Origin: Rhizophagus irregularis
Taxonomy: Eukaryota
Direction of reading: 5' to 3'
Assembly: GCF_026210795.1 (NCBI RefSeq)
Contig: NC_089429.1
Coordinates: forward strand, 3,162,001-3,226,000
Length of the DNA stretch: 64,000 bases
The notes below the pieces were generated by a model. The model was not told where the DNA came from, did no database searches, and saw only the letters and a program-made list of their open reading frames with translations. The translations under genes were made by a program, and so were the position numbers. Shown here piece by piece: positions 7,070-64,000 of this stretch (position 1 is the stretch's first letter; the number at the start of each line of letters is the position of its first letter).

Positions 7070-7154
7070 GTAGTACCATCCTGCTTTGTTGGTACAAGCT
7101 GGATGGTACCACTAAACGAAATAGCTCATTATCTTCTGAAGTTTCTAGTATCAA

Positions 7155-7680
7155 CATTTGCTTTTGGGATTTAGTAGAGCCAGAAGCTGCAGATTCTTGC
7201 TGTTTCGTCGCTTACTTTTGGGTTCTGGTAGAGCCAAAAGCTGCAGATTCTTGCTGTTTCATCACTTGCTTTTGGGTTCTGGTAGAGCCAGAAGTTGCAG
7301 ATTCTTGCTGTTTCGTTACTTACTTTTGGGTTCTGGTAAAGCCAGAAGCTGCGGATTCTTGTTGTTTCAACATTTGCTTTTGGTTCTGGTAGAGCCAGAA
7401 GCTGCAGATTCTTGCTGTTTCGTCGTTTGCTTTTGGGTTCTGATAGAGCCAGAAGCTGCAGATTTTTGTTGTTTTAACGTTTGCTTTTGGGTTTTGGTAG
7501 AGCTGGAAACTGTAGATTCTTGTTGTTTTGACGCTTGCTTTTGGGTTCTGGTAAAGCTGGAAGCTATGGATTCCTGTTGTTTGACATTTACTTTTGAGTT
7601 TTGATAGAGCTTGAAGCTGCAGATTCTTGTTGTTTCGATATCGACATTTGTTTGGGAGAATTGGAACTTGCAGATTCTGA
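7155..7680. repeat. 54-bp tandem repeat, about 9 diverging units
   Basis: Unit TTGCTTTTGGGTTCTGGTAGAGCCAGAAGCTGCAGATTCTTGCTGTTTC..; period 54 (7212 to 7266). Confidence 0.9.
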
Positions 7681-9243: not shown

Positions 9244-9703
9244 TAGTGCTCTGAAACGAGTCGAGTTGACTCGCGAGTTGGTCGAGTCGAGGTCGCGTTG
9301 AAAATTACAATCAAATCGAATCGATTCGAGTCGAGTTAATAATTTAATAAAATCGAGTCGAGTCGAGTTAAGCCGAATTAAACATAATTCCGGCCAAATT
9401 TATGGAATTTCCTTTTTTGGAAATTATGTTACACAAAATCCGAGACGAAAATTTTTTGAAAATTACAAAAATGGAATTTTGTAGAATGGCTATCGCCAAA
9501 AAAAGGAAATGATCAGCATAGCCGAATTAAAATCACGTGATTTAATTCAACTCGACTCGATTCGGTTTAACGGGCCAACTCGATTCGAATCGAGTCGAGG
9601 TTTATATTTTTATAATTTTAACTCGATTCGACTCATTCATTTAAGCTCGAGTCGAATCGAGTTTACATATAACTCGACTCGACTCGGCTCGTTCGGAGCT
9701 CTA
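9244..9703. mobile_element. hAT-type MITE with GAGTC/GACTC subterminal repeats
   Basis: Ends TAGTGCTCTGAA / TTCGGAGCTCTA; 8-bp TSD GGCCTGAA/GGTCTGAA. Removal restores the transposase frame IQLGL-KDRFYSF. Confidence 0.9.
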
Positions 9704-10013
9704 GGTCTGAAAGATCGTTTCTATAGTTTCGTGTCATGTCCGAAATGTCATAAATTATATAACAAGACAGACATGGACGAAATTCAAAAAAATGACAGTA
9801 TCGGTATCATAAGATGCAGTCACGTCGAATTTCCAAATTCGGCGTCTTGAAGGATGAAATCGTATCAAATGGTCTTGGCTGAAAAAGAGGTTAAAAAGCC
9901 AGAATTAATATATCCGTTTGTACTGATTCATCAACAATTGGAAGTTCTATATTATCGGCCTCACTTTGAACGGTTACTTCAACATGTATCAAATTGTCGA
10001 CGATTCGATAATA

Positions 10014-10289
10014 GGCCAAAAGAAATAAAATTATTCATTTCTCATGAAAAAAATTGCTAAATTTGATCTAGCCGTAGAAAAAAATATTTTTTAATAAAAA
10101 TTTAGCCGATTCCTAGAAGTTAATTGGTTGATTTAATAAATTTTGCGGGTCATCGAATGGAAAAAAAAATTATTTTTTTATGATTATGATTGGTCAAAAC
10201 TAAAATTACATGACTAAATAAAATATCTTTTTTTAACATTTACATGACCCGCCCAGTTATGGAAAATGAATAATTTTATTTACTTGGCC
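10014..10289. mobile_element. MITE with 3-bp TSD (PIF/Harbinger-like)
   Basis: TIR GGCCAA..AAATAAAATTATTCATTT / AAATGAATAATTTTATTTACTTGGCC; TSD ATA. Removal restores FDNILTDIYDG. Confidence 0.85.
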
Positions 10290-12342
10290 ATATACTGACC
10301 GATATATATGACGGTCAAATCTGGAAAACATTCAGAGAAGCTGATGATGAAAATTCAGCTAAAATTTTCTGACCAGAAGTAGCTGATTCACATCTAGGAC
10401 TGATGATAAACCTTGATTGGTTCCAGCCTTACGATGGTATATTTTATAGTATCGGGTAATTTACGTGGCTATCTGTAATTTACCCCCGTGATATTTGGTT
10501 CAAGTGCGAAAATTTGCTGGTTCTCGGTCTACTACCAGGACCGAACGAAGTAAGCTTGCACAAGATTAATCATTATATTGCGCCTATTGTCAATGAATTA
10601 GAGTTACTATAGAGTGGAATAACTTTAAATCGAACATTTGAGTGCCAAAACGGGAAAAATATTCGTGCAGCTTTAGTACTAATTTTATGCGATATTCCTG
10701 CTACTCAGAAAATATGCGGGCATATTTCAGCTTTAGTTTCTTGCCATCGGTATATGAAATGAACAAATTATGAAGATCACCAACATAATTTTGCAGGTAT
10801 GGAGGATATGGAGAATTAGTTCATTACTCGCGATTTGACCAAACATTATCGGAATGCTCTTGCATAGCGAAGTTGCAATTCCACCAATTTAAGAAAGAAT
10901 TTCGTTAGTGAAAAAGAAGTTAGATGGTCGGAGTTACTTCAATTGCCGTACTTTGACCTAATTCGTTTTATTATTGTAGATCCAATGCACTGCTTATTCT
11001 TAGGAATTGCAAGGTGGATAATAAAGAGGATTTGGATTGATAAGGGTGTTTTAATCCTGAATAATCTAAAGAAGATTCAAGAAAAATGAATCAATTCAAA
11101 GTACCGGCTGATTTGGGATGAATTCCTGGAAATATTGAGTGTAGAGAAGGGTTTTTGAACTATACAGCCGATCAGTGGCAAATTTTCTTTATGATCTACA
11201 CAACTACCTCATTGTGAGAACATTTACCATCAAAAGATCGAAAAATCTTAACACATTTCGTTAGAGTTTGTTCTATTTTAGTAAGCTGAATTTTAGAAAT
11301 TGAATTAATGGAAGAAGCTCATGAGAGGCTAATTAAAATAATTAAGCTTATTGAAGTACACTATGGAAGAGTAAAAATTACGCCTAATCTTCACCTTTTA
11401 CTCTATTTATGCGATTGTTTGAATGATTTTGGTTCATTATATGCATTTTGGTGTTTTTCATTTGAGCATATGAATAAAATACTCAGTAAGATATTCTTTT
11501 TTTTTACTTTTTTACTTTATTTGGACATTGTTAATCTTATTTTTAATAATTTTTAAGGCTCGTTGCCAACAAGTAATAGACAAATTGAACCGGAAATAAT
11601 GCGTCAGATAATAAATGATAATCTAATTGGAGATATCATTAGTTCTGACATTCAAACGAAAGGTTTAGAATTGCTTGAAGATCGACCCACAACTGGTTCA
11701 ATATCGGCTGCAGACCAATTTTCTTCAGATGAACTAGAGCAGTTTTGGCTAAATGCTAAAAACATACAGGAATCGACTATTACTGGATGCGAGCCATTTC
11801 CTGAAGAAATGCTAAAGCCTAGTTCTGAAGCAATAATGACTGAGTCAATGCTCGAACTGATGGTTACTTTTTATAATGCTTCTTATATTGAAACGTATAA
11901 GTTTAACAAATCAGCAGATGAAATTATCCAAGATTCTATAATAATTCAAGTAAAGATAAATCAATTTGGAAGATGCTGAATTGGTTCTGAAGTATTTGGT
12001 TTTGCAATGTCAGTTCGACATACAAAAAGCTCGTATGTCCTAGCCAAATTTATAACTAGTGATAGGGAAGTCGACAGTTATCCTGGACAAATTCAATACT
12101 TCTTTAAACATACAGTCAACTTGCCAAATGGACAAATAGAACATAATTTGGCATATATTCGTTGGTATCGACCAGCTAGTACGAGTAAAAGTCAATATTA
12201 TTTTCATATTAATGATTAAGACAAGAGCTGTAACGTCGAATTGTGGAAATCTGAATTTTATGATAAAAGCCGTGACTGTATTATTCCCGTACATAATATC
12301 CTTTGTCAATTTATACTATCAAAATATCAAATTTCTACTCGG

Positions 12343-13090: not shown

Positions 13091-14278
13091 TCAAATTCTA
13101 ATTATAACTTCAAAATTTGATCTATCGATATATTCCTTTAATAATTCTCTATTTACTGGTGTTTTCTGTATTCTTCCTTCCATAGTCTTGATTCTATAAG
13201 ATCCTTTAGAAACTTTTTCGTATATATAATAAGATCCTTTCCATTTTTCTTCTAATTTTCCAGACCATTGTTTTTCTTTTGCTGCATCGTAATATAATAC
13301 TTTATCTCCTATCTGAAATTTCTTCTTTATTTTATTTTTCTTATCATGATATAACTTTTGTTTCTCTTAAGATTTTTCAATATTTTCTTTAGCTTGATTT
13401 CTAATGCTTGGTAATTCCTCAATTAGACTATTAATTCTTTGTGTTATTGTAACATTTTCATCCTCTAAATTCAATAATGTCTTCATTTCCCTTCCATATA
13501 TTAAATATCCTGATTTTAACTTCATCGAATCATTCTTTTTTGTTCTATAAGCAAATAAAACTCCTGGTACTTTTAAATCCCAATCTTCAACATTACTTAA
13601 TTTCACCAATGATTCACATAATATCTTATTGAATCTTTCAATTAATCCATTCATTTTTGGGTGATAAAACATTAAAAAATTATGTTTTATCTGAAATTCC
13701 TCCATCAACAATTTTACTAATTTATTATTAAAATGGCTTCCCCTATCACTTAATATCTTCTTTGGATATCCATGTCTGCATATTATATCTTCATAAATGA
13801 ATCTTGCAATTTCTTTAGCATCTGCTGTTTCTAAAGCTCTAGCTTCTGGCCATTTCGTAAAATAATCCATAGCTGTAACTATGTATCTATTATTTCTTCC
13901 TGTTATTGGTAATGGTCCCACAACATTTATTCCAATCTGATAAAATGGTTCTTTAACTCTAATTACATTTAATTCATGTTTTCCAATCGGGTTTCCTCTT
14001 CTTTGACAACTATCGCATGATTTAACATATATTTCTATATCTCACCTTATTCCTTTCCAATAATATTTCTCTTTAACTTTTTCATGTGTTGCATTTATTC
14101 CAAAATGTCCAGATAATTCATGGTCATGTGCAATATACATTAATCCTTTGAACTCATATTTTCTTATTACTCTCAAATCTTTATTATCTTTTATTCTATA
14201 TAACAAGCCATCTTTTATTCTATAATGTTGTTCATTATCTATATTTTCAATTATCTCGTTATATTTATCTTCTTCCAT
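13091..14278 (-). pseudogene. Gypsy integrase (H2C2 zinc finger, rve core, GPY/F-like tail)
   Basis: HDHELSGHFG..YYWKG..VKSCDSCQ, GPLP..NRYIVTAMDYFTKWPEA, SDRGSHF and NGLIERFN; internal stops. Confidence 0.9.
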
Positions 14279-14586
14279 TAACTAATATGTCTTCTATTTC
14301 TTCTTCAAAAGGTAAAATAAACCTTATATTTTTATCTTCAAATAATACGCAATGATAACTTGTATTCTTATGTATAATATAAATATATATTCCTATCCCA
14401 ATATTTTCAGTAGTCATTTTACTTTTCCAATAGTTTTTTGACTTGTTTATATACATTTCTTTAACTTGTGTTTTCATTCCTAATCTTTATATTCTTATAT
14501 TTTTCCTTATTCTCATAAATGTTTAACATTCTTTAAATATCCTAATCATATCCCTATATTCTCCTCTATTTCATATTCCTAATATT

Positions 14587-15312
14587 TTAATCTCCCTGTT
14601 CCAAAAATCCTTTGACCCATTTGTATACTTTTTTCCAACTTTTGTCATCATTTTTAATTTTAATTCTTTTATATTTTTCTTTGTTCTCATAAATATTCTG
14701 ATGCTCTTTAAACATTTTCACCATATCCATATATTCCTCTTCATTTAACGTTTCATATGATGTTTTATGTCCTTTATTACTTTTCTTAGTTTCTCTTTCA
14801 ATATAGTTATTCCAACATTCTTTATTTTCTAAGAAAATTATTATCGCATTATCTATAATATCTTTATATTTAAATATCTCTTTTTCCATTTTATGATTCC
14901 TATATGGAGTAATATATCCTCTATCAAAACTTTTGGTCTTTTGATAAAAGTATTTACAATATGGTGACTTATCTAATATTATAATATCTTCATCCATAAA
15001 TTCAACTATTCTCTTATTAATTTCCTCTACTACTTGTTTTCTAAATAACCATTCATATTCCTTCAAAGGCTTTTCAAATCTTTTATCATCATTTCTTTTT
15101 CTTTTAAACTTATTAAATATTATTTTTAAGCCGTCCTTTTCTTCTAACCGTTTAATCATATTTTCTACTATAGTGGACTTTTCTGTACCATCTGGTCCGT
15201 CAATAATAACAACTTGTGGTTTATTCTTTCTTCCTAATTTCTTTAATAATTCTTTTTCTGTATTATCTTCTAAGTTCAACAATATTGCTTCTTTATCATT
15301 AAAATATTTCAT
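14587..15312 (-). CDS. Thymidylate / deoxynucleoside-monophosphate kinase-like P-loop domain inside Gypsy pol
   Basis: VIIDGPDGTEKSTI (GxDGxGKS/T P-loop with a G>E change), IILDKSPY..YFYQ (DRS..Y-like motif) and an IIIFLE strand. Same frame as the upstream RNase H ORF, separated by one TAG. Confidence 0.75.
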   Translation of the reverse strand: MKYFNDKEAILLNLEDNTEKELLKKLGRKNKPQVVIIDGPDGTEKSTIVENMIKRLEEKDGLKIIFNKFKRKRNDDKRFEKPLKEYEWLFRKQVVEEINKRIVEFMDEDIIILDKSPYCKYFYQKTKSFDRGYITPYRNHKMEKEIFKYKDIIDNAIIIFLENKECWNNYIERETKKSNKGHKTSYETLNEEEYMDMVKMFKEHQNIYENKEKYKRIKIKNDDKSWKKVYKWVKGFLEQGD

Positions 15313-15638
15313 ATTGTCCTATTTTCCTCTAAATCTTTTAGCTTCATACCATTTATTTTCAAATTTAACATATTTCAACTTTTTCTCTTTATTATACTCC
15401 ATTTTCATTATTCCTTGATCCAAGCTTTCAAAGTCCCTTTTTATAACTTTCTCCTCAAATTTTAATCTTGATAATGCATCTGCATTCTTATTTTCTTTAC
15501 CACTTCTATGTATCACCTCAAAATCATACTGTTGTAACTCCATTACCCATCTCGCTCTTCTCCCTGTAGGTACTTTAGCATTCATTAATCCTTTCAGTGC
15601 AGAATGATCTGTTATAACTGTAAATTTTCTTCCTGCTA

Positions 15639-16491
15639 CCCTATAAAAAGTATTTATATTTAAAATATAATTAAAAACTTTTTAAAATATATTTAAAATA
15701 TACTTAAAATATATTTAATTTAAAAATTGCGAAATACTTATAATATACTTAAAATGTATTTAAAATTATCTTAAAATATATTTCTAATATATTTAATTTT
15801 TGCCCAAATACTTAAAATATACTTAAATTATATTTAAATTAAAATTTAAGTATATTATAGATATATTTTTTACATACTTAAAATATTCTTATAATATATT
15901 TCATAATATATTTTAAGTATATTTTGAGTATGTAAAAAATATACTTATAATAATCTTATAATATACTTAAATTTTAATTTAAATATAATTTGCAAAAATT
16001 AAATATATTAGACATATATTTTAAGATAATTTTAAGTATATTTTAGATATATTAAAAATATATTACAAGTATTTTGCAATTTTTAAATTAAGATAAATCT
16101 AATTGTAACAGCCTGTTACGCGTCTTATTTGTAACAACCCCAATTTTATCCAATTAAAATTTAAGATCAGACGTAATGTAAACAAAAACAAAAGATCAGT
16201 TGTGTAACTAAGACAAAAGAATTTTTTAAAAATTTCAAGAAACTGCTTATAACTTAAAATTTTGTCTATGAAACTGTCTTAAGTACATTAAGTAAAAGTT
16301 TTTCAAATTAAATTTTGCATATAAAAATTTTATTTGTAAAATACACACTAAATTTATTATTAAAAAAAAAATAAAAAAAAGTTGTTACAAATAAGATATG
16401 TAACAGGCTGTTACAAATACATTTATTCTTTAAATTAAGTATATTTTAAATATATTTTAAGTATATTTTAAGTATAGTACTTTTTATAGGG
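15639..16491. mobile_element. Non-autonomous TIR element, CCC..GGG termini, 3-bp TSD
   Basis: TIR CCCTATAAAAAGTA / TACTTTTTATAGGG; TSD CTA. Removal restores HKFLA-GRKFTVITDH. Confidence 0.88.
16104..16415. mobile_element. MITE nested in the previous MITE
   Basis: TIR TGTAACAGCCTGTTAC..TCTTATTTGTAACAAC / GTTGTTACAAATAAGA..GTAACAGGCTGTTACA; TSD unclear. Confidence 0.75.
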
Positions 16492-17145
16492 CTAAGAACT
16501 TATGAAAATGTTTAATCCCCCAAAATATTGCTAAACATTCTAATTCCGTTATTGGATAGTTCTTTTCTACTCCAACTAAACTCCTACTAGCATAAGCTAT
16601 AACAAATTCTTTGTTTTCTTCATTTTTCTGGGATAGTACTGCTCCCAATCCTTCTTCTGATGCATCTGTTATTAATATAAACTCCTTCTCAAAATTTGGA
16701 TAATCTAATACTGGTTTTTCCATTAATTTTATTTTCAGTTCTTCAAATGCTTCTTGTTGTTTCTCTGTCCATTTAAATGGTACATCCTTCTTAACTAAGT
16801 GATATAAAGGCTTTGCTATTTTTGCAAAATTCTTTATAAATCTTCTGTAATATGAACACAATCCTAAAAATAATCTCACTTATGTAACAGTTTCTGGTAT
16901 TTTTATTTCTTTGATTTTCTCTATTTTCTTCACATCTGGTTTTAAACTATCCCTTCCAACTATATGTCCTAAAAATTCAATATTCCTCTTACCAAACTTA
17001 GTTACATTTCTTCAATTTCACAATCAGGTTATTTTCTCTTAATTTGTTCAATACTTTATCAATATATTCTATATATTCTTCAAAATCTTTTAAGTAAATC
17101 ATTATATCATCTAAATACACTATTACAAATTCTTTACTGAAACTT

Positions 17146-21042: not shown

Positions 21043-23408
21043 ATGTCAAGCGGTCCTTCTAAGGTAAGCAAAGTCGACCACCATCAGATGTATGGTGTAA
21101 TCATATGATACAAGGTAACATGCAGTCGAGAGGACACTATTCAGCGACGTGTAGTTACTGTCGACAATACTGGAGACAAGGAAGGCCCCAAGTCCTCAGT
21201 GCACATTTGGCAAACCACTGTAAAAAATGCCCCGATGATGTTTCATTGTATTTTGCCAAAATTGTCGGGAAAAATCTTGCTAAAGAAGAGGAAAAAGCGC
21301 AGATGAAGATGAATCAGATTATCCTAACAAAAGGGTTCGACAAACGGGAATTAAGAATTTTTACGGAGGAGGTAAAATAGAAAAAGGACGGAGTGATGAA
21401 TTAGACCGGAGGGTGATAACGAAAGCCTACGTGATGTGCAACATACCGCCCTTTTAGCACAATCGATAATCCTTGGTTTATCGACATGATAAAAGCGCTG
21501 GAGCCAGGATACGATCCACCTTCGCGACGAGTACTAAATGGTACTTTATTGGAGGCGGAATTATCCAGAGTCAATGCACGAGTCAACAATGAATTAGAAA
21601 AAGAGTCTAATTTTACTATCGGTAAATCTATAATTTCTATAATTGCTTCAAAATATTTTATTAAAAAAATAACTATCCATATATTTTTTATTAGCTCTTG
21701 ATGGTTGGACAGACCCTCGAGGGAATAGCTTATGGGCGTTTATTTTGCTGGACACCATCGAGAAAGGAATATCTATTACAACTTGAAGACCTTTCTAAAA
21801 ATTCACATACCGCTGAATATTTATCAAAAGTTATAAATGATATAATTTGTAAAGTGGGTATAAGCAAAATTGTCGCTATTGTCAGTGACAATGCTGCCAA
21901 TGTCGCAGGTGCCCGTCGATTAATCACGAATGAATATCCATCCATTATCAATATACGATGCATCGCCCATTGCATCAATCTGATAAGTAGTGATATTGTC
22001 AAAGTAGATCAAGTTAAATGTCTTGTAAAACGAGCAAATATTTTAACAAGATACTTCAAAAATTCAACCCTTGCCAGCACTTGGCTTAAAGAAGCGATTG
22101 ATGCAAAAAATATTGCAGGTGGAGGGCTGAAAACGTACATCGAAACAAGATGGACGACAGTCCATGAATGTACATCTTCGGTGTACAGATTAAAAGATGC
22201 TTTATTACATGTACGTATACTTTATATTTAAATTAATAATAATTAAACCTAATACAAAAATGTTTATTCAATTAGGTCCTGGACAATCATGAACGCGAAA
22301 TCTCTAATGAAGCTGTAAAAGCAATTTTGAAAAAAAGAGGGTTTTTTGATGACATTCGTATTTTATCGGATATTTTGGAGCCGATAAAAAAAGCAATTCT
22401 CATGTTAGAAGGAAGTAATGTAACTTTAGCAGATTGTTATCTGCATCTTCTTCGTATCGCAGCATTTTTTAAGTCAATGCCAACTGATGATTATAAAGAG
22501 TTAAGAAACTCTTGTATTAGCATTTTTAATAAGCGGTAATGTATTAAGTTAGTATCTTTAATAGAAGATTCAAAATTAATGTTTAATTTTAAATATTTTT
22601 TTAATAGATATAAAGAGTTTGACGAGGATATCTATTTGTTAGGTTTCTTCCTTCATCCTAAATACCGAGGTAATTATTTTTTTTATTGTTATTTAAATTC
22701 ATTTAATAATATAATTTTGCAAATTTGTTAGGACATGGAATGCGTAATAATCAATTTGAGCGTCTTAGAAAGTGTGCCCTTCGAATCTGGAAAAACCTTG
22801 GGCATAAAAAAAATTCTGGATTAGAACTTGATGCACAACTTCGTGCATACTTTGATAATTCTGAACCATATAACACGTCTTATTCAGTTCATGACACAGC
22901 TTACCATTGGTGGAATTCCATAGTTGATGGGAAATTTTCTTCTCTTTCGCGGCTAGCTAAAGTAATATTTTCAATAACCCCACACTCGGCAAGTTGTGAA
23001 AGATTATTTTCAGCCATAGGATGGCTCTTTGGTAAGAGACGTATAAATTTGCAACCAGAAACTATAGAGACAATGGCGAAAATATATCTTTATTCTCTCA
23101 AACATGCTAAAAAAGACTTAAATTATACAAGTAACGGTGATAGCAATTCAAAGTTAGATGATGATATTCAACTCATGCTGAATACAGTATTTGAAGAAGA
23201 AGAAGAAATTATGAGTGAGAATGATGATGATGATAGTTTTAATGAACATCAATCTGATGAAACAAATATGAATGATGAAACATTAGATATTGAAAGCACG
23301 GTAGATCTAGGACCATGGGTCTTTATTGATAATTCTATACTTCCAACTATTACTCGAAGATATGATAGTGATGGCGAAGAGGAATGGGATCCGGAACAAT
23401 TAAACTAA
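21043..23408 (+). pseudogene. hAT transposase (BED zinc finger, DUF659-like, RNase H-like core, dimerisation domain), spliced, frameshifted
   Basis: SDVW..ATCSYC..HLANHCKKCP, VSDNAANV, RCIAHCINL, ETRW, FLHPKY and WWNS..LSRLAKVIFSITPHSASCERLFS. Short GT-AG introns near 21622, 22211, 22536 and 22669; apparent frameshifts in the first exon. Confidence 0.9.
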
Positions 23409-35560: not shown

Positions 35561-36552
35561 TTATTTTATTATATTTAATAATTAATAAAAAAAAAATTAT
35601 GAAAATATATAATAAATAAATTTTTTTTTATATAAAATATTGATATTTATTATTGTTTTTGATTTATTTTAGAATTGCATTTTATTAAATTGTTTTTGAA
35701 GGATTTTTATATTTATGTAAAATTATAACTTTTTAATAAAGCTATTGCTTTTAGTAAAATTAAACAAATAAAAAAAAATTCTATTTATAATTAAATTACA
35801 AATATAACTGTAATTATTAAAGGGAATTCTTTCTGCCAATTGTATAAATCATTTTTTCTCAAGAAATTATCAGCAACTTTTTCAATAAAAAATGGCTTTA
35901 GCAATAACAAACAACTAGTAGTTAACTACAGTCAACTCTCTTTATAGTCACACATTTGGAACAGTTCATATTTGGTGATTATAAAGAGATGTGACTATAT
36001 AAAAAATTTCTTATATTAGTATATCATAATTCCAGCCAAAAATTAACCTAATTTTAGCCAAAATTATACTCAAAACTTTATTGTATCGTAACTCCACCAA
36101 TATTAATTGTAGAGAAACATCAAATCCAATCACTAGATTAATTTCCAAAATTAAAAAAATATTAATGGTTTTGTGTAATAACTCTGCCAATATTGATTCT
36201 AGAGAGACGATCTTACTACCATTCGATTCGTCTTGATGCGACGAATCTAATGGTATAAAATACATCCAAATCCAATCACTAGATCAATTTCTGAAATTAA
36301 AAAATATTAAATGGTTTTTAAGTAGTAACTCCGTCAATATTGATCACAGAGAGATAAGCTTACTACCATTCGATTCGTCTTGATGAGGCGATTTCAACGA
36401 GCTATTAATCGTCTTTTTACAATTACTAGGTACCGAGAAATTTAGCAAAATGTTAAATGGCGCAGTAAACGTAAATTAAGAAATATAATAATGCCAATAC
36501 TTAACATTTTGTTGAATAACTCATCAGCCAGTGATTGTAAAAGGATAAAACT

Positions 36553-37538
36553 AGGGGTTGGTCACCCTATCTCAGTGGTTAGTCACTGAGACCCTCATTA
36601 AGCCTGAGTATGGTGAGGTCGCAGGTTCAATTCCCATGACCACGGAAATAAAAAGAATTTTACTGCGGACGCTACAACCAATAGCGTGAAGGTACAGGGA
36701 TTAGTGTAGTTGGACTGCATCATGGTGAATTAGTGTGTACGGTTAGGCCGCACATTTCAACTAAGGGTCATGGTGTCCTTCTAACGTTCCCTATGCGGCC
36801 ATTGGCACGCGCGCAGTCCTGTCCTCGGCGTCACTACTATACTCGGGACTTCCTGTCCGGGTGGTCACTCTACGATACCACCTGGGGTCAGTAATGGCTA
36901 GATGGTCGTCCTAGATGGTAAAGCTGAGGGTGCAATGTCTTAGTGGTAGTTAGACCTTCTGTTAGGTCTTAGACCAACCAAGGTGTTCGTGCACGGAACA
37001 GGTAGCTGTACGGCCATAAAAGGGTTCGATTCCCTACTTTCGGGTCCTGGTTGGTGATCCCTGGTGGTTGATACCCACCATAAGGGGTGATCCTGGACAG
37101 ATGCCTGCTACTTCCTGTCTGAGTGGTCACTACAATGTATACCACCTACAGGGTAAACAACTGTACTATCGGTGTTAAGTAATCGCGGGCTGTAGTGAGC
37201 GGCTTTAGTGAGACTTAGTACCTAAAATGGTGGTATGGAAGGGTACTAGATGGTTGATGTTACCTGTTGAAAGTCCTCCATGAAAGTAGATGCTCTCTAA
37301 AGGTCGTAAAATAAATTGAGTATCAGTATCATGCAATGGATATAGGATGAGTAGGCGGCGTGTACCTAGCTTCAGATCAGCCTAAAATGGCCCGATGGGG
37401 GATGTCTTCTAAAAGTGGTGCTGTTACCTGAGGAATTAAGTACTCGGTATAATGGTTGCCCAAATGAAGATGATAGGACACAGACCCGAGATTAGTCTCA
37501 TAAGAGGCAATGGGTGGTCTGGCCGTAAACATAGCAAA
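36553..37538 (+). mobile_element. Long tRNA-headed SINE-like retroelement
   Basis: 16-bp TSD GTAAAAGGATAAAACT (36537-36552, 37539-37554). tRNA-like head with A-box TATCTCAGTGGT, B-box GGTTCAATTCC (36624-36634) and a TGGTCA/TGACCA acceptor-like stem; second B-box at 37023-37033. GC much higher than flanks; no long ORF. Confidence 0.8.
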
Positions 37539-37554
37539 GTAAAAGGATAAAACT

Positions 37555-37990
37555 CGGCCCTTCTACTGTTTCCTTTTCTACTATTTCTCCTCATCATCAT
37601 AACTCTTCTTTGGCGACAGTTTCTCAGGATTCCTAGATTTCTTGGATATCCTCTTCTATAATTCAAGATGGACCTTGAATCTTGCACTTGGATTTTCTGC
37701 GCCGCTTAACAGTTCAACCTCTTATGGTCTCTTTCTGGTAACGGACTGGATTTTTGGATGTTAAATAGTTGACTTACACTGGCCTTCAGGTAAAGTTGGG
37801 ATATGCGATTCTGTAATAGTTTAATTTTCTTTGCTTTAATTTATTTTAGTATAGTTTTCTTTACTTGTATGAGTTGTGAAGCTACTCTTTTTATTTTTTA
37901 TTAGTTTATTTTCCTATTTGTAATATTGTTCGATCCTTTTTGATTTTAAAATATAAAATAAAAGATAAAGTCAAAAGACTGTTTGCACAA
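37555..37990 (+). mobile_element. 5'-truncated LINE-like 3' end
   Basis: Bounded by 15-bp TSD TAAAAGGATAAAACT (37540-37554, 37991-38005). Begins mid-frame with a S/T/H-rich then S*ISWISSSIIQDGP*ILHLDF..W* peptide, followed by a T-rich 3' UTR-like tract. LINE identity is inferred. Confidence 0.6.
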
Positions 37991-39635
37991 TAAAAGGATA
38001 AAACTACCACCATTCGATTTATCTCAGTAAGACGATTCTAACAAACTATGGTACATCTTTGTATAATTATTAAATGCCAAGTTATTTAATATATTCTTTA
38101 TATAACTGTAATTATAAACGGTTCTTTTTAATATAAGATTTTTGAGGATAGGTGTGATAGTGACTATAGATAGATTGTGACTATATAGAATAAATTTTAA
38201 TAATAAAGTGTTTTGAACATTCAACTGGTGTGACTATATAGTAGAATGTGACTATAACAGGAGTGACTATAGAGGGAGTTGACTGTATTTAAAAGTCAAA
38301 CAACTTATTAATAATATTAAAGATAGTTCTTTTCTTAAATTTTTAAAGGTTGGCCTAAATAAATGAAGCATATATATATAGTAAATACTGTTAAACTTAT
38401 TAGCAGAAAAAACTAGGACCCTGCTTATTCATAAGATAGGTCATCCCATGTCTAAGTAAAAATCATATATATAATTCTTTGCAGATCCTATTATAAAAGA
38501 AAATTTTATGTTACATTGTTACAGTGTTACTAAAGTTGCTTGTTGAAATTAGTGAATTTTGTTATGTTGAAATTATCAAAATTATTTTTCTATTTTGTCA
38601 TTTGCATTTTGATCAATTTTAATAATGGAGTTATCTGGATGCCATCCAGGATGGTATTTAATTTTTTGCCACCCCCTTTTTTACTTGCATAACTTTTAGT
38701 AAAAATTGAATTTAATCAAAAAATTTTTCAATATATATCAATTTTATAAATTGTATAATTATAACACATAAAATCGCAAATTATTTGTTACTTTCTTTAA
38801 TATCTTTATTATTGTAAATTTAATACAATTTTATAGGTTATATCTTTGCATTAAATGCGCTTGAATTAACACATTATTACAATAAAAACTACGATCAGCA
38901 AAAATTAAAATTATTGCATCTCAATATTTATGGTACATGTGATGGAATTCTTTAAATTTTTATCAATTCTAATTAGAATTACTACCTCCCACATTTTTTC
39001 CTTTACACTTCAAATAAGTATAACCTTACTTGTTACATAATTTACATGATGCTATGCATCGTCTAATGTTATGATTAGATGCATTACAATTACTACATGT
39101 CTTTGATCCTTTACCTTGTAAACTGCTGCTTCCATACACATTATTATCTTGAATAAAAGTATTTGAACTAATACTCTTATTGGAATTTTTGCATGTTTCA
39201 ACAGAACTTTTAAATCTTTTATTTCACAGCCTCCCCTTGAATTTAACCACATGTGGATTAAGAATTTTTCTTAAATCTGATTCATCAATACTTTTATCTG
39301 TGTCATACAATTCTTCTAGAACCTAATTTAAAACATTTAAGACGTCAAATCATTTTTTTTCAGTAGCAATTTAAGCAATTTTACGACCAATTCTAAACAA
39401 ATTACTATACAAATGCCATACTTGGATTTTCATGTTAATATTATCTATTGAGTTCTCTTCTCTAAGTACATCTAAAATTGTTGGTAGTTGTACGTGTAAA
39501 AGATTCCCATTTACATTCATAAATGCGTTTAAATTACTAAAATTCTCTGAATCATTAAATGTGTTTCCATAAATTTCTAACTTAAACCATCGCTTTTTAA
39601 TTAAAGAAATACTAAACTGTGCTTATTAACTGCAA

Positions 39636-39879
39636 TAAGGTTGCTTGCCAAAACCTAGGGGTTTAGGCAAGATGGCGTTTCGCCGAAAAGCAAAATTCTG
39701 CTGAAACTAGATTAAAGTTATATTAAAAAACTGGCAAAACTTTGGAGAATGGCGAAACTGCTGAAACTTATTATAAACGCCGAAACTGCTGAAACTCTGC
39801 CGAAACTATAATAAATCTATAGTAAAATTTTGACGAAATTAATCGTAGGATTTTGAAGAGGTTTAGACAAGCAACCTTA
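39636..39879. mobile_element. hAT-type MITE (TAAGGTTGCTTG family), copy 2, opposite orientation to copy 1
   Basis: Same TIRs; perfect 8-bp TSD AACTGCAA; near-identical reverse complement of 19490-19733. Confidence 0.92.
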
Positions 39880-40359
39880 AACTGCAAATCATGACCTGGA
39901 AAAAATTACGGCACACTAATTCACAGTTCAAAATCATTAAACAGTTGCAAATATATCCATAATCACATAAAAGAATCACAAAATGTGGTGTTGAGTTTGA
40001 TCTATATATAAGATAAGTAATATGCCATATTTCCATAATATCTTCCCAATCTACTTGATTTATCAGTAATTTTAGAGATATTTGAGCTATATTAACTTGA
40101 TAATCAATATTTGAATCACTATTTTCATGCTCAGCATCCTAAAAATTCAAAGTAACTAATATTAATATGCAGTATGATCAAAAATAAATACATGCATTTA
40201 ATAATTAAAATTCCAATATTATCATTGTAAATTTATTAAATGCGCCAATAAATGCTTACCATAACATTATTATATTCTTTTAGTAAAATTAAAATAGCAT
40301 TATATTCAAAACTTACATCAAGTTATGCTTTTTGAGATATTTCTTTAGTTTTTTAATTA

Positions 40360-41804
40360 CAGTCAACTCTCTTTATAGTCACACATTTGGGACAGTCCAC
40401 ATTTGGTGATTATAAAAAGATGTGACTATATAAAAAATTTCTTATATTTGTATATCATAATTTCGGCCAAAAATTAACATAATTTTAGCCAGAATTATAC
40501 TTAAAACTTTATTGTATCGTAACTTCACCAATATTAATCGTAGAGAGATGATCTTACCGCCATTCGATTCGTCTTGATGAGACGGTTCTAATGGTATAAA
40601 ATACGTCGAAATCCAATCACTAGATTAATTTCCGAAATTAAAAAAAATATTAATGGTTTTTGTGTAATAACTCTGCCAATATTGATCCTAGAAAGACGAT
40701 CTTACTACCATTCGATTCGTCTTGATGAGACGGTTCTAATGGTATAAAATACGTCGAAATCCAATCACTAGATTAATTTCCGAAATTAAAAAAAATATTA
40801 ATGGTTTTTGTGTAATAACTCTGCCAATATTGATCCTAGAAAGACGATCTTACTACCATTCGATTCGTCTTGATGAGACGAATCTAATGGTATAAGATAC
40901 ATCGAAATCCAATCACTAGATCAATTTCCGAAATTAAAAAATATTAAATGGTTTTTAAGCAATAACTCCGTCAATATTGATCACATAGCGATGAGCTTAC
41001 CACCATTCGATTCGTCTCGATGAGGCGATTCCAACGAGCTATAAATCGTCTTTTTATAATCACTAAGTACTGAGAAATCTAGCAAAATGTTAAATGGCGC
41101 AGTAAACGTAAATCAAGAAATATTATAATGCCGATGTTTAACATTTTGTTGAATAACTCGTCAGCCAGTGATCGGAAAAGGATAAAACTTACCTAAAATG
41201 GTGGTATGGAAGGGTACTAGATGGTTGATGTTACCTGTCGAAAGTCCTCCATGAAAGTAGATGCTCTCTAAAGGTCGTTAAATAAATTGAGTATCAGTAT
41301 CATGCAATGGGTATAGGATGAGTAGGCGGCGTGTACCTAGCTTCAGATCAGCCTAAAATGGCCCGATGGGGGATGTCTTCTATAGTGGTGCTGTTACCTG
41401 AGGAATTAAGTACTCGGTATAATGGTTGCCCATTGAAGATGATAGGACACAGGACCGAGATTAGTCTCATAAGAGGCAATGGGTGGTCTGGCCGTAAACA
41501 CTTGCAAAGGAAAAGGATAAAACTACCACCATTCGATTCGTCTCAGTGAGACGATTCTAACAAGCTATGATACATCTTTGTACGATTATTAGATGCCAAG
41601 TTATTTAATATATTCTTTATATAACTGTGATTATAAACAGTTCTTTTTAATATAAGATTTTTGAGGATAGGTGTGATAGTGACTATAGATAGATTGTGAC
41701 TATATAGGATAGATTTTAATAATAAAGTGTTTTGAACATTCAACTGGTGTGACTATATAGTAGAATGTGACTATAACGGGAGTGACTATAGAGGGAGTTG
41801 ACTG
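40360..41804. mobile_element. pogo/Tc1-type MITE copy B, carrying one retro-insertion
   Basis: Same TIRs as copy A with TA flanks; internal tandem hairpin modules. Confidence 0.92.
41190..41508 (+). mobile_element. 5'-truncated copy of the SINE-like element
   Basis: Near-identical to 37219-37538; own 16-bp TSD GGAAAAGGATAAAACT (41174-41189, 41509-41524). Confidence 0.88.
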
Positions 41805-43198: not shown

Positions 43199-43365
43199 AA
43201 GATTATGATTCTTATACTGTGGTTCAAAGGTAGTTATCCTGGGATTTGATTCAGTTTTTGTCCAACAAATATTTATATAACATGTACATTCAATGTGAGA
43301 AGATGTGGTAATACGTGTTATATTTGGATCATTGCCTTTATATGATTTTAGCTTACCAGCATGAT

Positions 43366-44315
43366 TAAAGTTGCCTGCCGAAATTAGGGAGTTTTGGCAT
43401 GTCGAAATTGTCAAAACTATTTCGACATTTCGACACTGGCTCTCTGATTTGTTGAAATGCCAAAATAGTTTCGACATGTCGAAATTGTCAAAACCTAAAA
43501 ATATTACGTTTTACATAATAACTCGGCATCCAATGATTGTAGAAAGATGCGCCATAGCTCGTTGGAATCGTCTCATAACGACGAGTCGAATGGTGGTTAG
43601 ATCGTCTTTCTTTCTACGATCACTGGATGCCGAGATATTTAACGAAACATCAAAAATCGGCATTTTGTATTTTGCGATACTGCGCCATTTGACGTTTCAC
43701 ATAATAACTTGGCATCCAATGATCGTAGAAAGATGCACCATATCTCATTGGAATCATCTCATAACGACGAGTCGAATGGTGGTAAGATCGTCTTTCTACG
43801 ATCACTGGATGCCGAGATATTTAATGAAACGTCAAAAATCGGCATTTTGTATTTTGCGATACTGCGCCATTTGACGTTTCGCCTATTATCTCGGCATCCA
43901 GTGATCGTAAAAAGATTATTTAACCACCATTCGACTCGTCGTTATGAGACGATTCCAACGAGCTATGGTGCATCTTTCTATGATCATTGGATGCCGAGTT
44001 ATTATGTGAAACGTCAAATGGCGCAATATCGCAAAATACAAAATGCCGATTTTTGATGTTTCGTTAAATATCTCGGCATCCAGTGATCGTAGAAAGACGA
44101 TCTAGCCACCATTCGACTCGTCGTTATGAGACGATTCCAACGAGCTATGGCGCATCTTTCTACGATCATTGGATGCCGAGTTATTATGTAAAACGTAATA
44201 TTTTTAGGTTTTGACAATTTCGATATGTTGAAACTATTTCGGCATTTTGGCATTTTGACAGGTTTTAGTTTCGACATTTCGACAATGGCCTGTAGAGTTT
44301 CGGCAGGCAACTTTA
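43366..44315. mobile_element. hAT-type MITE with internal direct and inverted hairpin modules
   Basis: TIR TAAAGTTGCCTGCCGAAA / TTTCGGCAGGCAACTTTA; 8-bp TSD AGCATGAT/AGCGTGAT. Confidence 0.9.
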
Positions 44316-44710
44316 AGCGTGATTATATTCAAATATCTTTTTACTAATATCTTTATCAACTCGATAATAAGTATTTTGCAACAACCTCCAGGAAAAACCT
44401 TTTATTTTTGCATATGTATGTAATACTTGGTCTACATGTTTCCAACTTTCAAATTTATAACCAACCATTAACTCAAGTGCTTATTCTTTTAGATTGTCAT
44501 TAATCTGAAGTTCTTGAAAAACTCTTAAATGGTTTTTTCTGGAGATTACAGATTTTGACATAGTGTTTTCCTTATTTAAATCAGCGTTGTCCATTTTTGT
44601 TTTAAATGTTACATTAAAATAGCAGTATGAATAGTACAAATAGTATGAATTAAAAAATTTTTTTTTGTTTAATATGAAGTATTTACACATGTGATGTATC
44701 ATATGATGTA

Positions 44711-47066: not shown

Positions 47067-49251
47067 CAGTCGCCACTGGATATAACGAACCAGCCGTTCC
47101 AAGAGATTTGGTTCAGTATATAACGAATTCGATATATAATATTTATGTTATATACCGAACTGTTCGGTATATAAATTTTATCCAATAGTTTTAGCTGCAC
47201 ATGACCATTATATTTAAATTAAAGTTAATAAAATGCGCGATGTACTACAATATTATTTTATTAACGACTATAATTATTAACCAGCTATTTAAACATTATT
47301 ATTATTATATTAGAAGTAATGAAGATCAAGCTGTTTAAGATTATTTACAACTAAAAGTTTTACTTTTTTATGTAATTTTCTTAAAACCTTTAACTCTTCA
47401 TTTACATCACCAAATTCCGGTCTCTGTTCATACAAAAATTTTATAGTTTTATCTATAGCCTTTTCTGCATCTGTTGGACTCACTTTTTCCGATATAGGTG
47501 TAAATTCAGTCTCATCCATCATATCTTCCTCTTCCTTATCTGCATTTCGTATAGTATCAACTATTTCAAAATCTGTAAGCCCACCTTTCGGCATCTCATC
47601 CTCAACATGAAGGTATTCATACGCATTAAGATCACTATTTGGAAGCTGGGAAATTAACGCTTCAAGTTCATCAATATCCATATCAAAACTAAGAAAAATA
47701 GAAGTTAATGTTAATTTTAAAAAAATTATATTATATAATTTTGCATACCTATCATCAGAAAATGCTGAATCATTATCAGGAAATTCTCCAGTTTCGTTAA
47801 TACTTGGTGGAAGAATACCCGTTTTCTTCCAACAGTTTGAAATCGTTTGAGAAGATACTATTGACCATGCTTCAGCTGCATTCTGTAGAGCATCATAAAT
47901 GGTATAATCTGCAAGTTCTTCCACAATACCGTCCTGCACATCATCATATGCATCAATCCTATTCTGAATGAAAAGGCGTTTGTAATGACACTTAAATGAA
48001 TGAATGATCCCCGCATCACAAGGCTGAAGTTTAGTGGTAGTATTTGGTAGAAGAAATTTCACATCTATACTATCCAACTTTTCTCGAGTTTCATCTAAAA
48101 TAAGATGTACTGGTGCATTGTCAATTAAAAAAATTATTTTTCGTCTTTTTCGTCTCATTATTTCATTGAGTTTAAGAAGAACTTCATTAAAAATGCTAAC
48201 TTGCATCCATGCTTTTTTATTCTAAAAGTAATAAACTGGAAGGTTTTTATAATTAATGTTTTTCATAACACGAGGAGTTTTGTATTTGTGAATAAATGTT
48301 AGCGTCATTTTCTCACTGCCGGTTGCATTTGTTGCACAAAATATTGTAACACGGGATTTCTCTTTTTTATGCCCTGATAGAGAATTACGTGCCAAAACTC
48401 TAAAAGGTTCCATCTTCCAGAATAGGCCAGTTTCATCACCATTCCAAATGTCTTCAGGGTTGTAAAATGCAAGGAGCTGTTGTAAAGCAAAACGATCTCT
48501 TTCTATCAATTCAGCTGAAGGAGCACTTTCAGCTTCACCTTGCTTTTTAAATTGACGCAAACCATGCCGTTTTTTAAAGCCACCTAACCAACCCTCTGAA
48601 TGATGAAAATCTTCTATTAAAAACTGTTCGGCAAAATAGCTTGCCTTTACCTTTAAGATATTACCATCAATATCTTGTTTAGTATTAAGTGCGTTGTTAA
48701 CCCATAAACCAAGTGCACCTTCCAGTTGTGGCCATTTTGGTCTGCGAAATTTTTTAGTATTTTCTTAGCTTTCTGTAATTGTAAGCCAACGGTCACTTTC
48801 TCTTAAAATGTCAGTAATTGTAGACTTCCCAACATTATATTTTTGCGCAAGTTCTACATTTTGGAGTGTTGGGTCTTTCTCTTTCATTTCACAGATTTCG
48901 CGCTTTTGTTTAGCAGAAAGACTAACTCTTTTTCTCTTTGTCAGCATTATCGGAACTTTTGAAGAAATTTATCTGATTCAGACTAACGGAAATTGGAAAA
49001 GTATTTACGCGTAATGGTGATGTGATCATCTTTTATATTAGCCCATATAAGTCACATGACAGTTCGATATACTAAATATGCAGCTAATATATTTGGGCTA
49101 GCTATAATGAGTTCGGATGCGGTATATAGCAATTTATTATGTGATTTCGTTATATTCAATGTAGTTTATTATAAAAAATTAGTTCCGTAAAACTTAGTTC
49201 ACTATAACAAGTTTTCGGTACAAACAGGTTCGTTATAACCAGTGGTGACTG
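47067..49251 (-). mobile_element. pogo/Tigger DNA transposon, full length
   Basis: TIR CAGTCGCCACTGGATATAACGAACC / GGTTCGTTATAACCAGTGGTGACTG; TA TSD. Confidence 0.93.
47310..48947 (-). pseudogene. pogo/Tigger transposase (CENP-B-type HTH + DDE_1)
   Basis: KRKRVSLSAKQKREI, SEGWLGGFKKRH, NGDETGLFW, KAWM, IDNAPVH, PNTTTKLQPCDAGII and ISNCWKKTGI; in-frame stops at about 48765 and 48222. Confidence 0.92.
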
Positions 49252-60420: not shown

Positions 60421-62920
60421 TTAGTTTTGACACGTCTTTGAGTAATGTCCATACTGCTTACACTTCCCGCACCTTCTCCCCTTTGTTTTATCTATAACAC
60501 CATGATCTATTATGTTAACCTGTGTACTATTTTTCAATACTCGATTAGATTCCTTAGACGAAGACAATTCAACATTTGACTTAAATCTTTTTGGAGGCCG
60601 TCCTTTGTGCTTGATAATAGCTGGATTATTAACATCAGCAAAGAGTTCTACTTCCTGAACATTCTTATTCTGTGCATTATAGATAAAAGCCTTGAGTAAG
60701 TTCACTAATTCATTTTGCATATTTGTCTTAAATGCACAATCAATACCCGTCTTTGATAACCCAAATAATTTCGCGTGAATAGCTTTACTTGATTTTACAG
60801 GTAGTTGGGAACCATGTGAATCAACTCGAAACAAAAAAAAGTGCTAAAAGTTGATACTTTTTTCTGTTTCTACATTTTCTACATTTTCTTGTGTTATGCC
60901 ACATACCGGAATAGAAGGATGTTATTGCAAAAGATCATTTGGATGAATATTGGTATTTAAGTACCATCAGTTTGGGATTATGCTTATATGAAATGTTGCA
61001 TATTGGGAATAAATACCAACATGAAAAAAGTGATGGCATACCAACTCTTTATTGATTAAAAGAAGGCAAGTACATAAATGCATTCCTTTATTAAGCAGGA
61101 TCACATAATGACCTATTCCTTTAGTCCCAGTTGCTTGTACATGCCATACTTCCATGATAGCTTCTGGTGGAATAGTTTTAATTAGTGATTGGAAGAGGAT
61201 TTGTCGTGTATCTTGCTCCTGTTCTCTAATTCCAATACTCATTTCTTCATTATCAATTTCCGTCTAGAAGTGTCAAAAATATGATTTAATCACAAAATCA
61301 CATATGGACGAAGTACAAAAATCAAAATTACTTGCCTCCATTAACTGTTGCCATTCTATAACCTGATTGGCATCATAGCATACTGATTGATTCATTTGTG
61401 ATCGCTGTTTTCCAAGCATTACCAGCGTTAAGAAGTCTTTGATAACAGCATCCATTTGTCCAAAAAATCTCGTATTCAACATTGGCATTCCAACTTTAGG
61501 TAATGCATTTCGTTCAATTTCAAACTTTTCAAGATGTTCTTCATTTTTAACATAATCTTTAATACTATGTAATAGATCACATAATGAAGTAGCTCGATCA
61601 ACTTTATCATGTATATGTTTATTAATTGATTCAATTCGTTGTGTGCTTTGGGCTCCAGTAGTGAATTGTTTGTATACCCAGGGAATTGCCTATGATTCCT
61701 TTTTAACATAGAGTGATTCAGAAAGATATTTTGCTGCTGCTGGATATTGATTTACTAACTGATTCCATCTGCATTCAAATAGTTTCTCACAAAGAGAATT
61801 ACGACATACATAGAACTTATGGTGAAATTCCTTAAACTGACTACCCAATTTTCCTTTAAGCTTTTTTCTGAGATTCAGATCAATATGGAAAATGCACAGC
61901 AGGTGCTGGGTATTGGAATAAATCTCTTTAATTGAATGAATCATTGAAGGATCTGAATCAGTGAAGATAACTCTGGGATAAACTCCTATTTCAGTAAGTA
62001 TTGTATCAAAGATCCATCTATAGGTGTCTAATGTCTCATCTTCAATGATAGCACTTGCCACAATTCTAGTCTTATAATTATTATCAATTACTGTTAAGAT
62101 GCATAGCATCATTTGAAACCTATTCGTATTATATGTTGTATCAAGTATTACAAAATTATTGTATTTGCTATATACAGTCAGCCCCCTTTATAGTCACACC
62201 CCTTGGAACCGAAAAAAAAGGGTGTGATTATAAAAAAAGTCATATGTTGTGATTATAGAGGAGGTTTTTCTAATATATTTATTAGTACATTGGGCCAAAA
62301 TATGGTATGCTTATAAAGGGGAATTTTATATGTTGTGATTATACGGGGGGTGACTATATAGGGGGTCGACTGTAGTTCCCTTTGTACCGGTGACATCCAA
62401 AAAAGAGAGCTTAATTTCCTTGAAATTGGGTCTAGTCTAGGTTTAACTATCCAGAGTGGCTCATCATCCTTCCATTCTAGTAATTGCTAAAGCATCTGGG
62501 ATGCATCAGTGGCACCTAGATTGTTTTTCTGACAAAATTGATATACCGCGTTATATAAGTCTTTTTTATGAATAGGTTTGTCTGGATAATCATATCTAAG
62601 CAAAGGATATATAGATCCTGAGTCTATTCGTCCTTAATTAACATACTTCTCTATATCTTCTAACATTTTAGGTGTTAATTTACGAAAACGTGATACTATT
62701 TCACGAATAATTGGAGTAAAAGAATGATTATGATGATTGTTAAATGAATTGATCTTTACAACACCATTTTTTTTTGGACAGGTGACATTAAGTTTTCAGG
62801 AATAGAGTACTCGTAAAGAAAAAGCATTACAGCACTTAATTAGATCTGAAGTGATTTGTGGATTATGTGAGCCAGACTTGGTGCATTCTATACATGCTGC
62901 CCAAATTATTTTGGGATGCC
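60421..62920 (-). pseudogene. FAR1/MULE-type transposase 2 (MULE, SWIM, C-terminal CCHC), decayed
   Basis: ILDTTYNTNRF, IEDETLDTYRWIF, FTDSDPSM, CIFHIDLNL, AGAQSTQRIESIN, CTCLLLINKELVCHHFF, KGRPPKR and CGKCKQYGHYSKTC. Confidence 0.88.
62175..62372. mobile_element. pogo/Tc1-type MITE
   Basis: TIR CAGTCAGCCCCCTTTATAGTCAC / GTGACTATATAGGGGGTCGACTG; TA flanks. Confidence 0.88.
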
Positions 62921-62925
62921 ATAAT

Positions 62926-64000
62926 TAAAGCTCTGAACGGGTCGGTTTGGTCCGGATTATAGACGGTTTGGATTAGAGTCGAAATCTGTAATAACCGAAC
63001 CGAAAAACTGGCGGTTCGGTTCAGTTTAATCCGATTTTTATAAAAATGCGAAAAATCGAATAGCCAGCAATCTAGCGATCGTATAAAGTCGAGCTATATA
63101 TCATTGGATTCGTCTTGACGAGACGCATCGAATGGTGGTAAGAACATGTCTCTAGCATCGATAGATCACATGTTAACCTACGCTAAATGATTTATCAATA
63201 ATTGGAATTAGCAAGCTATCTATCGGTGCTAGAGACATGATCTTAGCACCATTCGACTCGTTTTAGTGAGACAAATCCAATGAATATAAATTCGTTCGTG
63301 TACGACCACTAGATGGCGAATAATATCAAGTTTCGCATTTTTTTAAAATTTTCGAGCGTTAAAAATTAAAAATTCCGATACATGAATTTATTCCTCGTCC
63401 AATAGTCCTACAAATATGAATTAGGACTCATTGGATTCGTCTCAATGAGACGAGTCGAATGGTGGTGAGATCATGTCTCTAACATTAATAGATCGTAGGT
63501 TAATTCATGCTAAATAATTTATAAAAAATTAGCATTAGCAAGCTATCTATCGATGCTAGAGACGTGATCTTACCACCATTCGACTCGTCTCATCGAGACG
63601 AATCCAATGAGTCCTAATTTATATTTGTAGGACCATTGGACGACGAATAAATTCATGTATCGGAATTTTTAATTTTTAACGCTCGAAAATTTTAAAAAAA
63701 TGCAAAACTTGATATTATTCGCCATCTAGTGGTCGTACACGAACGAATTTATATTCATTGGATTCGTCTCACTGAGACGCGCCGAATGGTGCTAAGATCA
63801 TGTCTCTAGCACTGATAGATAGCTTTCTAATTCCAATTATTTATAAATCATTTAGCATGGATTAACGTGTGATCTATCGATGCTAGAGACATGATCTTAC
63901 CACCATTCGACGCGTCTCATCGAGACGAATCCAATAATATATGGCTCGACTTTGTACGATCACTAGATGGCCGGCTATTCGATTTTTCGCATTTTTATAA
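62926..64000. mobile_element. hAT-type MITE/foldback element with dyad modules (runs off window end)
   Basis: Starts TAAAGCTCTGAAC with AACCG/CGGTT subterminal repeats; long inverted arms around ~63520 built of CATTCGACTCGTCTC..GAGACGAATCCAATG modules. Confidence 0.75.

Follow-up and report, generated by a model that had tools for sequence, protein, structure and literature searches.

The stretch of Rhizophagus irregularis DNA analysed here (the window: 64,000 nucleotides, positions 3,162,001 to 3,226,000 of contig NC_089429.1, assembly GCF_026210795.1) contained two copies of one miniature inverted-repeat transposable element (MITE), both split at one site directly 5' of ACCACCATTCG by retroelement sequences: a short interspersed element (SINE) and the 3' end of a long interspersed element (LINE) in copy A, and a shortened SINE in copy B. 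Copy A read target-site duplication (TSD)-SINE-TSD-LINE-TSD and copy B TSD-SINE-TSD, as proposed in a preliminary description of the window, and the coordinates and five target cores were confirmed as follows:

35929..38285, + strand: host MITE copy A, pogo/Tc1-mariner type, with TA duplication, CAGTCA terminal inverted repeats (TIRs) and an array of hairpin modules
36537..36552, + strand: target copy 1 in copy A, 16 nt, GT variant
36553..37538, + strand: full-length SINE-like element in copy A, 986 nt
37539..37554, + strand: target copy 2 in copy A, 16 nt, between SINE and LINE end
37555..37990, + strand: 5'-truncated LINE 3' end in copy A, 436 nt
37991..38005, + strand: target copy 3 in copy A, 15 nt (the host variant's T is part of it)
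38006..38050, + strand: rest of the interrupted hairpin module in copy A (ACCACCATTCGA...GAGACG-type stem)
40360..41804, + strand: host MITE copy B, same family as copy A
41174..41189, + strand: target copy on the 5' side of insert B, 16 nt, GG variant
41190..41508, + strand: 5'-truncated SINE, 319 nt, starting at copy A position 37219
41509..41524, + strand: target copy on the 3' side of insert B, 16 nt

In copy A, GATT preceded target copy 1 and ACCACCATTCG followed target copy 3; in copy B, GATC preceded the first target copy and ACCACCATTCG followed the second. The 14-nt target core, AAAAGGATAAAACT, occurred in five exact copies in the 64 kb, all at these insert junctions, a count reached in 0/100 shuffles (mean 0.00). 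Insert B (41190-41508) was 96.6% identical to positions 37219-37538 of copy A. Both hosts had the TIRs CAGTCAACTC.CT.TATAGTCAC with TA on each flank, and the TA duplication, pogo-like TIRs and lack of a transposase place them among pogo/Tc1-mariner MITEs, their likeness to an autonomous pogo element consisting of the terminal CAGTCA and TATA(G/A) motif only. A CAGTCA TIR resembling the host's was found at 49251, adjoining a Tc5/DDE_1 transposase remnant, which fits a pogo-type host. The remnant, a broken pogo/Tc5 (DDE_1) transposase gene (47313-49251, - strand) with that CAGTCA end, may be related to the mobiliser of the host MITE; more CAGTCA ends lay at 12113, 60078, 62175 and 62372. Compared with the majority of other copies in contigs from public sequencing runs, copy A differed chiefly by C>T and G>A, a bias consistent with methylated-cytosine decay.

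Elsewhere, too, the 3' ends of these elements ran into the same target. Because gene callers annotate a chance frame at the SINE 3' end, the flank can be read from predicted proteins. A protein query made of SINE residues only recovered 22 gene-model clusters, 14 of which read through the SINE 3' end unspliced; all 14 continued as translated target (RKRIK/KDKT), a peptide with a chance rate of 0.00075 per window position, and if these clusters are independent the lower 95% bound for a target flank is 77%. Of the other eight, which left the SINE before the junction, P0071 and P0072 did so at a likely splice donor, five belong to a SINE variant whose tail differs, and one departed earlier. When all cluster members are counted, 30/39 sequences carrying GNGWSG continued into target, and the remaining nine, from the two spliced clusters, exited at a likely GT donor, seven of them rejoining a SINE head. 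Behind the target, the 30 read-through models entered a SINE head (16), the module (2), truncated LINE (5: four in frame and one out of frame, with 24/28 residues compatible against 16 at the next-best place) or truncated SINE (P0067, and also P0043, which combines a short piece of SINE with another target and LINE), and in five (P0055, P0066, P0096, P0069 and P0070) the sequence behind the target was not assigned. The peptides there read KLKLKL in P0066, KTKTK in P0096 and KRIKL twice in P0069, which suggests repeats of the target 3' end at 5' junctions, as by template slippage. The earlier suggestion that the duplicated target follows its host's own variant held for both copies in the window (GT in A, GG in B; 2/2), a weak argument alone, and the Ser codon of the GT junction appeared in 0/30 read-through models.

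The LINE flank was sampled by placing contigs from four runs, each of a different study, on 37919-38008. In all four, depth dropped where short contigs end and then formed a near-flat plateau across the target; the depth step made by the junction-spanning word was roughly 0.65-1.04x that made by words inside the LINE end. Behind the target, loose ends led into SINE heads (4, 1, 7 and 4 contigs), into mixed inserts or into module. Most sampled SINE and LINE ends therefore lay at one target position and empty sites existed, as in sequence-specific retrotransposons lacking long terminal repeats (LTRs). A DNA pattern made from the SINE 3' end matched no stretch of viral or metagenome contigs (0 in each), and of the pattern hits for the LINE C-terminus 0/129 in viral sequences, 0/39 in prokaryote genomes and 0/102 in metagenomes were confirmed.

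Empty sites, which the preliminary description had proposed to look for, were recovered as joints from 36532, 36535 or 36539 to 37993 in three runs (X1, X2 and X7; none is listed for X4). LINE 5' ends behind target fell at ORF2 residues ~959, 991 (out of frame), 1663, 1675, 1701 and 1718 and at window positions 37555, 37586 and 37607, and SINE 5' ends at 36569, 37101, 37219, 37222 and 37346, or the element was full length. Because at least nine LINE and at least five SINE truncation points thus stood behind an intact target, the insertions are independent. Tandem arrays were found in three orders (SINE-SINE, SINE-LINE and LINE-SINE), with SINE-target-SINE and LINE-GG-target-SINE among the contig joints listed, and 21 GET/GBC accessions of one DAOM 197198 annotation (P0058 cluster) encode SINE-target-SINE. 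The inserts of copies A and B differed at 8/318 positions (2.5%) and their hosts at 49/746 (6.6%; Fisher p = 0.007), a difference that would follow if insertion came after the hosts diverged. Together with 3' ends that nearly always lead into target, the empty sites, truncations and tandem orders bore out the claim of independent target-primed insertions; hitch-hiking on a MITE may add copies but cannot produce this pattern.

The site itself belongs to a hairpin module. Only the AAAAGGATAAAACT variant was interrupted among some 20 such modules in the window, all of which fold as long DNA hairpins, and a further family carried the same module:

43357..44325, no strand assigned: second MITE family, same hairpin module, empty here; a relative elsewhere holds a diverged SINE

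That relative is P0098 (CAB4426110.1), which, read antisense, passes from the second-family module (80-87% identity to 43357-44325) into a diverged SINE in the junction register of copy B (SSFY/FAS versus LSFS/FAS); it is a single case inferred from a protein, the antisense protein search having given two matches, P0098 and P0099, the latter a repetitive chance match. Since a related SINE occupies a second MITE family in the same register, the target is the hairpin module, and the original placing of the site inside a MITE hairpin module stands for the module, not for one MITE family. Besides the host family, two MITE-like families in the window (43357-44325, the second family above, and ~63070-63970) hold the same module in inverted arrays that form long hairpins.

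The SINE (986 nt, GC ~47%) lacked a long open reading frame (ORF) and occurred in high copy in 4/4 public runs, with 2,423-12,050 contigs per run on a 1.8-kb stretch. Its head bore a box A-like motif at 36568-36582 and a box B-like motif at 36624-36634, the latter reading GGTTCGATTCC, of the form GGTTC(A/G)ATTCC, with the G found at 36629 in most contig depth. The head had a cloverleaf-like fold that was not significant versus shuffles (z -1.5), and ARAGORN and Rfam scans gave no tRNA, no ribozyme and one chance U8 match outside the elements, so that the label of SINE is based on the box A- and box B-like motifs and the fold. The element is likely tRNA-derived. Further features of SINE2 elements (non-coding, high-copy, with a TSD and a tail shared with a LINE) were present. 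Both tails had a short stem closing an AUAA loop, then TTGCA(C/A)AA in the same register to the target (stem-loop at 41464-41477 in insert B for the SINE and at 37969-37980 for the LINE, whose loop is AUAA in most contig depth, with A>T at 37974), a similarity over a short stretch that shows likeness only. A second SINE subfamily with another 3' region (WHDDASQE frame) was seen in P0061-P0063, P0073, P0074 and P0098; P0061 and P0073 run on into more SINE sequence, which suggests that this subfamily forms tandems too. Two SINE truncations start no more than 3 nt apart (37219 and 37222), beside an arm able to pair with 36867-36882, and 37219-37244 is possibly a place where reverse transcription stalls.

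The LINE end in copy A comprised a decayed ORF2 C-terminus with two in-frame stops (37556-37738), followed by 3' untranslated region. Its translation, with X at both stops, had 53 protein matches, up to 82% identity across the whole query, and 52/52 named matches were from R. irregularis. The endonuclease type, which the preliminary description had proposed to determine, was read from full-length relatives of ~1,700-1,800 aa, which form two groups, 93-96% and 68-70% identical to one of them, P0027. An apurinic endonuclease (APE) domain (Exo_endo_phos, PF03372/PF14529) and a reverse transcriptase (RT; RVT_1, PF00078) were present in 6/6 full-length relatives scanned and RNase_H in 5/6. In P0027 the RT spans residues 594-875 and the RNase H 1314-1452, the latter of His type (KVPAHG motif), with a CCHC motif (CPQC...HLWTC) farther downstream. 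This LINE family, with its APE-RT-RNase H layout, is abundant in R. irregularis, and the module is carried by several MITE families. APE and RT in ORF2, variable 5' truncation, a fixed 3' end and a TSD identify it as an APE-type non-LTR element; a restriction-like endonuclease of R2/CRE type was ruled out by the APE domains found. A Helenus/Ajax identity for the insert was likewise rejected, the insert being without LTRs, and PMC10886601 has 0 mentions of Rhizophagus.

The best solved-structure match of ORF2 in a PDB search was human L1 ORF2 (E 7.5e-21), with R2 close behind; PDB and NCBIfam searches left the RT clade unplaced, and an Atlas search returned only generic RVT_1 clusters. RNase_H in 5/6 relatives departs from the absence of RNase H that marks the Tx1 clade, and the His-type RNase H between RT and CCHC in P0027 agrees with the I group and Proto1. 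A single-sequence fold of the endonuclease domain had low confidence (mean pLDDT 35.8). L1-type APE domains carry the motif QET, with a metal-binding Glu, at a position where P0027 (residues 52-54) and its relatives read NDT, with Asp in place of Glu. One gene model, P0008, joins a transposase-like N-terminus (judged by eye) to a fragment of the LINE RNase H, and may indicate a LINE lying within or next to an autonomous element.

We conclude, with a probability of about 0.85, that R. irregularis harbours a target-specific LINE/SINE system inserted by target-primed reverse transcription at one site of a MITE-borne hairpin module. The shared site, the 14-16-nt duplications, empty sites, truncations, tandems and common 3' tail were seen directly. 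Repeated insertion at the 14-16-nt site likely stems from cutting there by the LINE nuclease, and a mechanism can be sketched from the junctions and from the biology of R1 and Tx1. The predicted APE domain would nick the bottom strand at GATC^G(T/G)AAAAGG (within 2 nt); the ORF2 protein would bind the 3' stem-loop and copy the RNA from the nick, frequently stopping early; a second nick after ...AAAACT would create the target duplication; and recutting of the duplicated target would let arrays build up. With the target in dispensable multicopy DNA, insertion would cost little, and we infer that the MITE module may act as a 'safe harbour'.

Several observations weigh against this conclusion. The flanks were sampled through gene-model proteins and public-run contigs and do not amount to a genome-wide count; gene models favour long ORFs, come mostly from strain DAOM 197198 and are not independent, and summed contig depth is not copy number, contigs with unique flanks perhaps being under-represented. 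Off-target LINE loose ends at 37986-37990, few among those listed, numbered at least three contigs in X7, three in X10, five in X1 and four in X2; one of those listed looks like a degenerate module and another is the terminus of the MITE itself in reverse orientation. SINE heads were also joined to the opposite arm of the host palindrome (36403/36409), and tandem junctions could also multiply by movement or duplication of the MITE. The tail stem-loops were no more stable than shuffles (z 0.41, 0.13 and -1.10), so the tail comparison cannot go beyond likeness.

The L1 nick consensus is TTTT/A, and in the GT variant the target's bottom strand carries CCTTTT/A at this point. The site preference could arise mainly from RNA-DNA pairing, the end of a read-through transcript (...AAAAGG) annealing to the primer that a loosely specific, L1-like TTTT/A nick provides. 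The two nucleotides before AAAAGG do look element-typical (an Arg or Lys codon in 28/30 SINE gene models, Ser never), most LINE ends read ...CAAT at the junction, and co-transcription with a target can reinforce specificity (PMC4494074). However, in the window these two nucleotides follow the host on both sides (2/2), one LINE end has GG (joint 37990 to 36539), the P0098 junction carries the second family's own module sequence in the same register, and the second nick, after AAAACT, is likewise fixed. We regard pairing as an unlikely main source of the specificity, although it is compatible with a target-specific nuclease as a helper step. Somewhat more doubtful is that the nuclease reads an extruded hairpin or cruciform beside the site and not the 16-nt sequence: the site lies a few nucleotides from the stem of a module that forms long DNA hairpins, and insertions occur also in the opposite arm and in a second MITE family with a differing 16-mer, but only the AAAAGGATAAAACT variant of the ~20 modules is interrupted and tandem copies, which lack the stem on one side, are frequent. 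That one or a few ancestral insertions spread as passengers of the MITE, with later deletion or gene conversion shortening them, is highly improbable and, as sole cause, already largely refuted. In its favour, the host can itself move, gene models share near-identical SINE-SINE junctions and two SINE truncation points fall within 3 nt. Against it, at least 14 distinct 5' junctions keep an intact target, some with extra non-templated bases, tandems come in three orders, the inserts postdate their hosts, and the SINE enters a second host family in the same register.

A target-specific LINE/SINE pair in a DNA transposon is already known. The crocodilian Tx1-Mar LINEs and SINEU-3 target Mariner-N4_AMi, where 313/347 SINEU-3 copies lie beside the target and truncated copies exclude hitch-hiking (Kojima 2015, PMC4494074). 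As described there, that system is the closest precedent, sharing with ours a LINE and dependent SINE in a non-autonomous Tc1/mariner element, a 16-nt TSD and tandem SINEs around the TSD; here, unlike there, the host is a fungus and the SINE a tRNA-like element of 1 kb, theirs being U1/U2-derived (PMC4494074). The RNase H before CCHC and a target module common to several MITE families also set our LINE apart from Tx1-Mar as reported. Xenopus Tx1L in Tx1D is similar in being an APE-type LINE at a fixed site of a non-autonomous DNA transposon, but its target is of the piggyBac family and its host an animal (PMC4494074). The preliminary description knew of no report of the arrangement in Glomeromycotina: no fungal case was found in the literature searched, although Repbase Reports, subscription papers, supplementary figures or the transposable element (TE) library may hold one, and the kind of arrangement is published for crocodilians (PMC4494074). 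That R. irregularis TE library lists SINE, L1-Tx1, L1-R1, I and other LINE families (Oliveira et al. 2024, PMC11075540) and probably includes the present elements as consensus sequences; its main text has no 'target site', 'MITE', 'nested' or 'preferential', and its supplement text no 'target'. The relevant text of PMC13465315 concerns general nesting only.

R1 elements target rDNA, telomeres and microsatellites in arthropods, and Tad1 elements are not known to be site-specific. The LINE described here behaves like Tx1-Mar yet has the RNase H that Tx1 lacks: in the clade survey of Kojima and Jurka (2015, PMC4640811), Tx1 is not among the RNase H-bearing clades (I group, plant L1, Proto1 and Dualen), and its account of target-specific APE clades names only Tx1 and R1, with animal examples. 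The order APE-RT-RNase H-CCHC and the His-type RNase H instead resemble the R1 and Tad1 clades of the I group (PMC5348765). CCHC stands upstream of RNase H in plant and oomycete L1 and downstream in others (Ustyantsev 2017, PMC5348765), and here it is downstream, with a RNase H of His type. A shared 3' stem-loop is described as typical of stringent LINE/SINE pairs (PMC3747384). We tentatively raise, as somewhat less than an even chance, a third and fungal origin of APE-LINE specificity outside R1 and Tx1, in which Glomeromycotina LINE subfamilies (two ORF2 types, ~70% identical) and their SINE subfamilies would each have a nuclease tuned to a module variant, the module spread by many MITE families and hundreds of arrays self-renewing.

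These insertions have also entered gene annotation. At least 30 annotated hypothetical proteins are translated SINE-target junctions (clusters P0058, P0072, P0066 and others), likely spurious genes, and the chance 50-codon frame that gene callers annotate at the SINE 3' end lies at 41358-41507 in insert B. Other remains in the window were pol fragments that look Gypsy-like by eye and the remnants of one hAT and one MULE element (13367-16879, 21695-23408 and 60421-62187).

For R. irregularis, dozens of 'hypothetical proteins' (e.g. the RIR_jg9455 family) are thus SINE-target translations and not genes, and part of the unclassified repeat fraction is accounted for. If an intact ORF2 keeps its specificity, it would be a candidate tool for DNA insertion into dispensable repeats of R. 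irregularis, and were the third-origin proposal true, it would offer a natural site-specific integration tool for a fungus without routine transgenesis. More broadly, the case is strict and high-copy, comes from a mycorrhizal fungus, extends the Tx1/R1 rule as formulated in PMC4640811 and may represent an independent origin.

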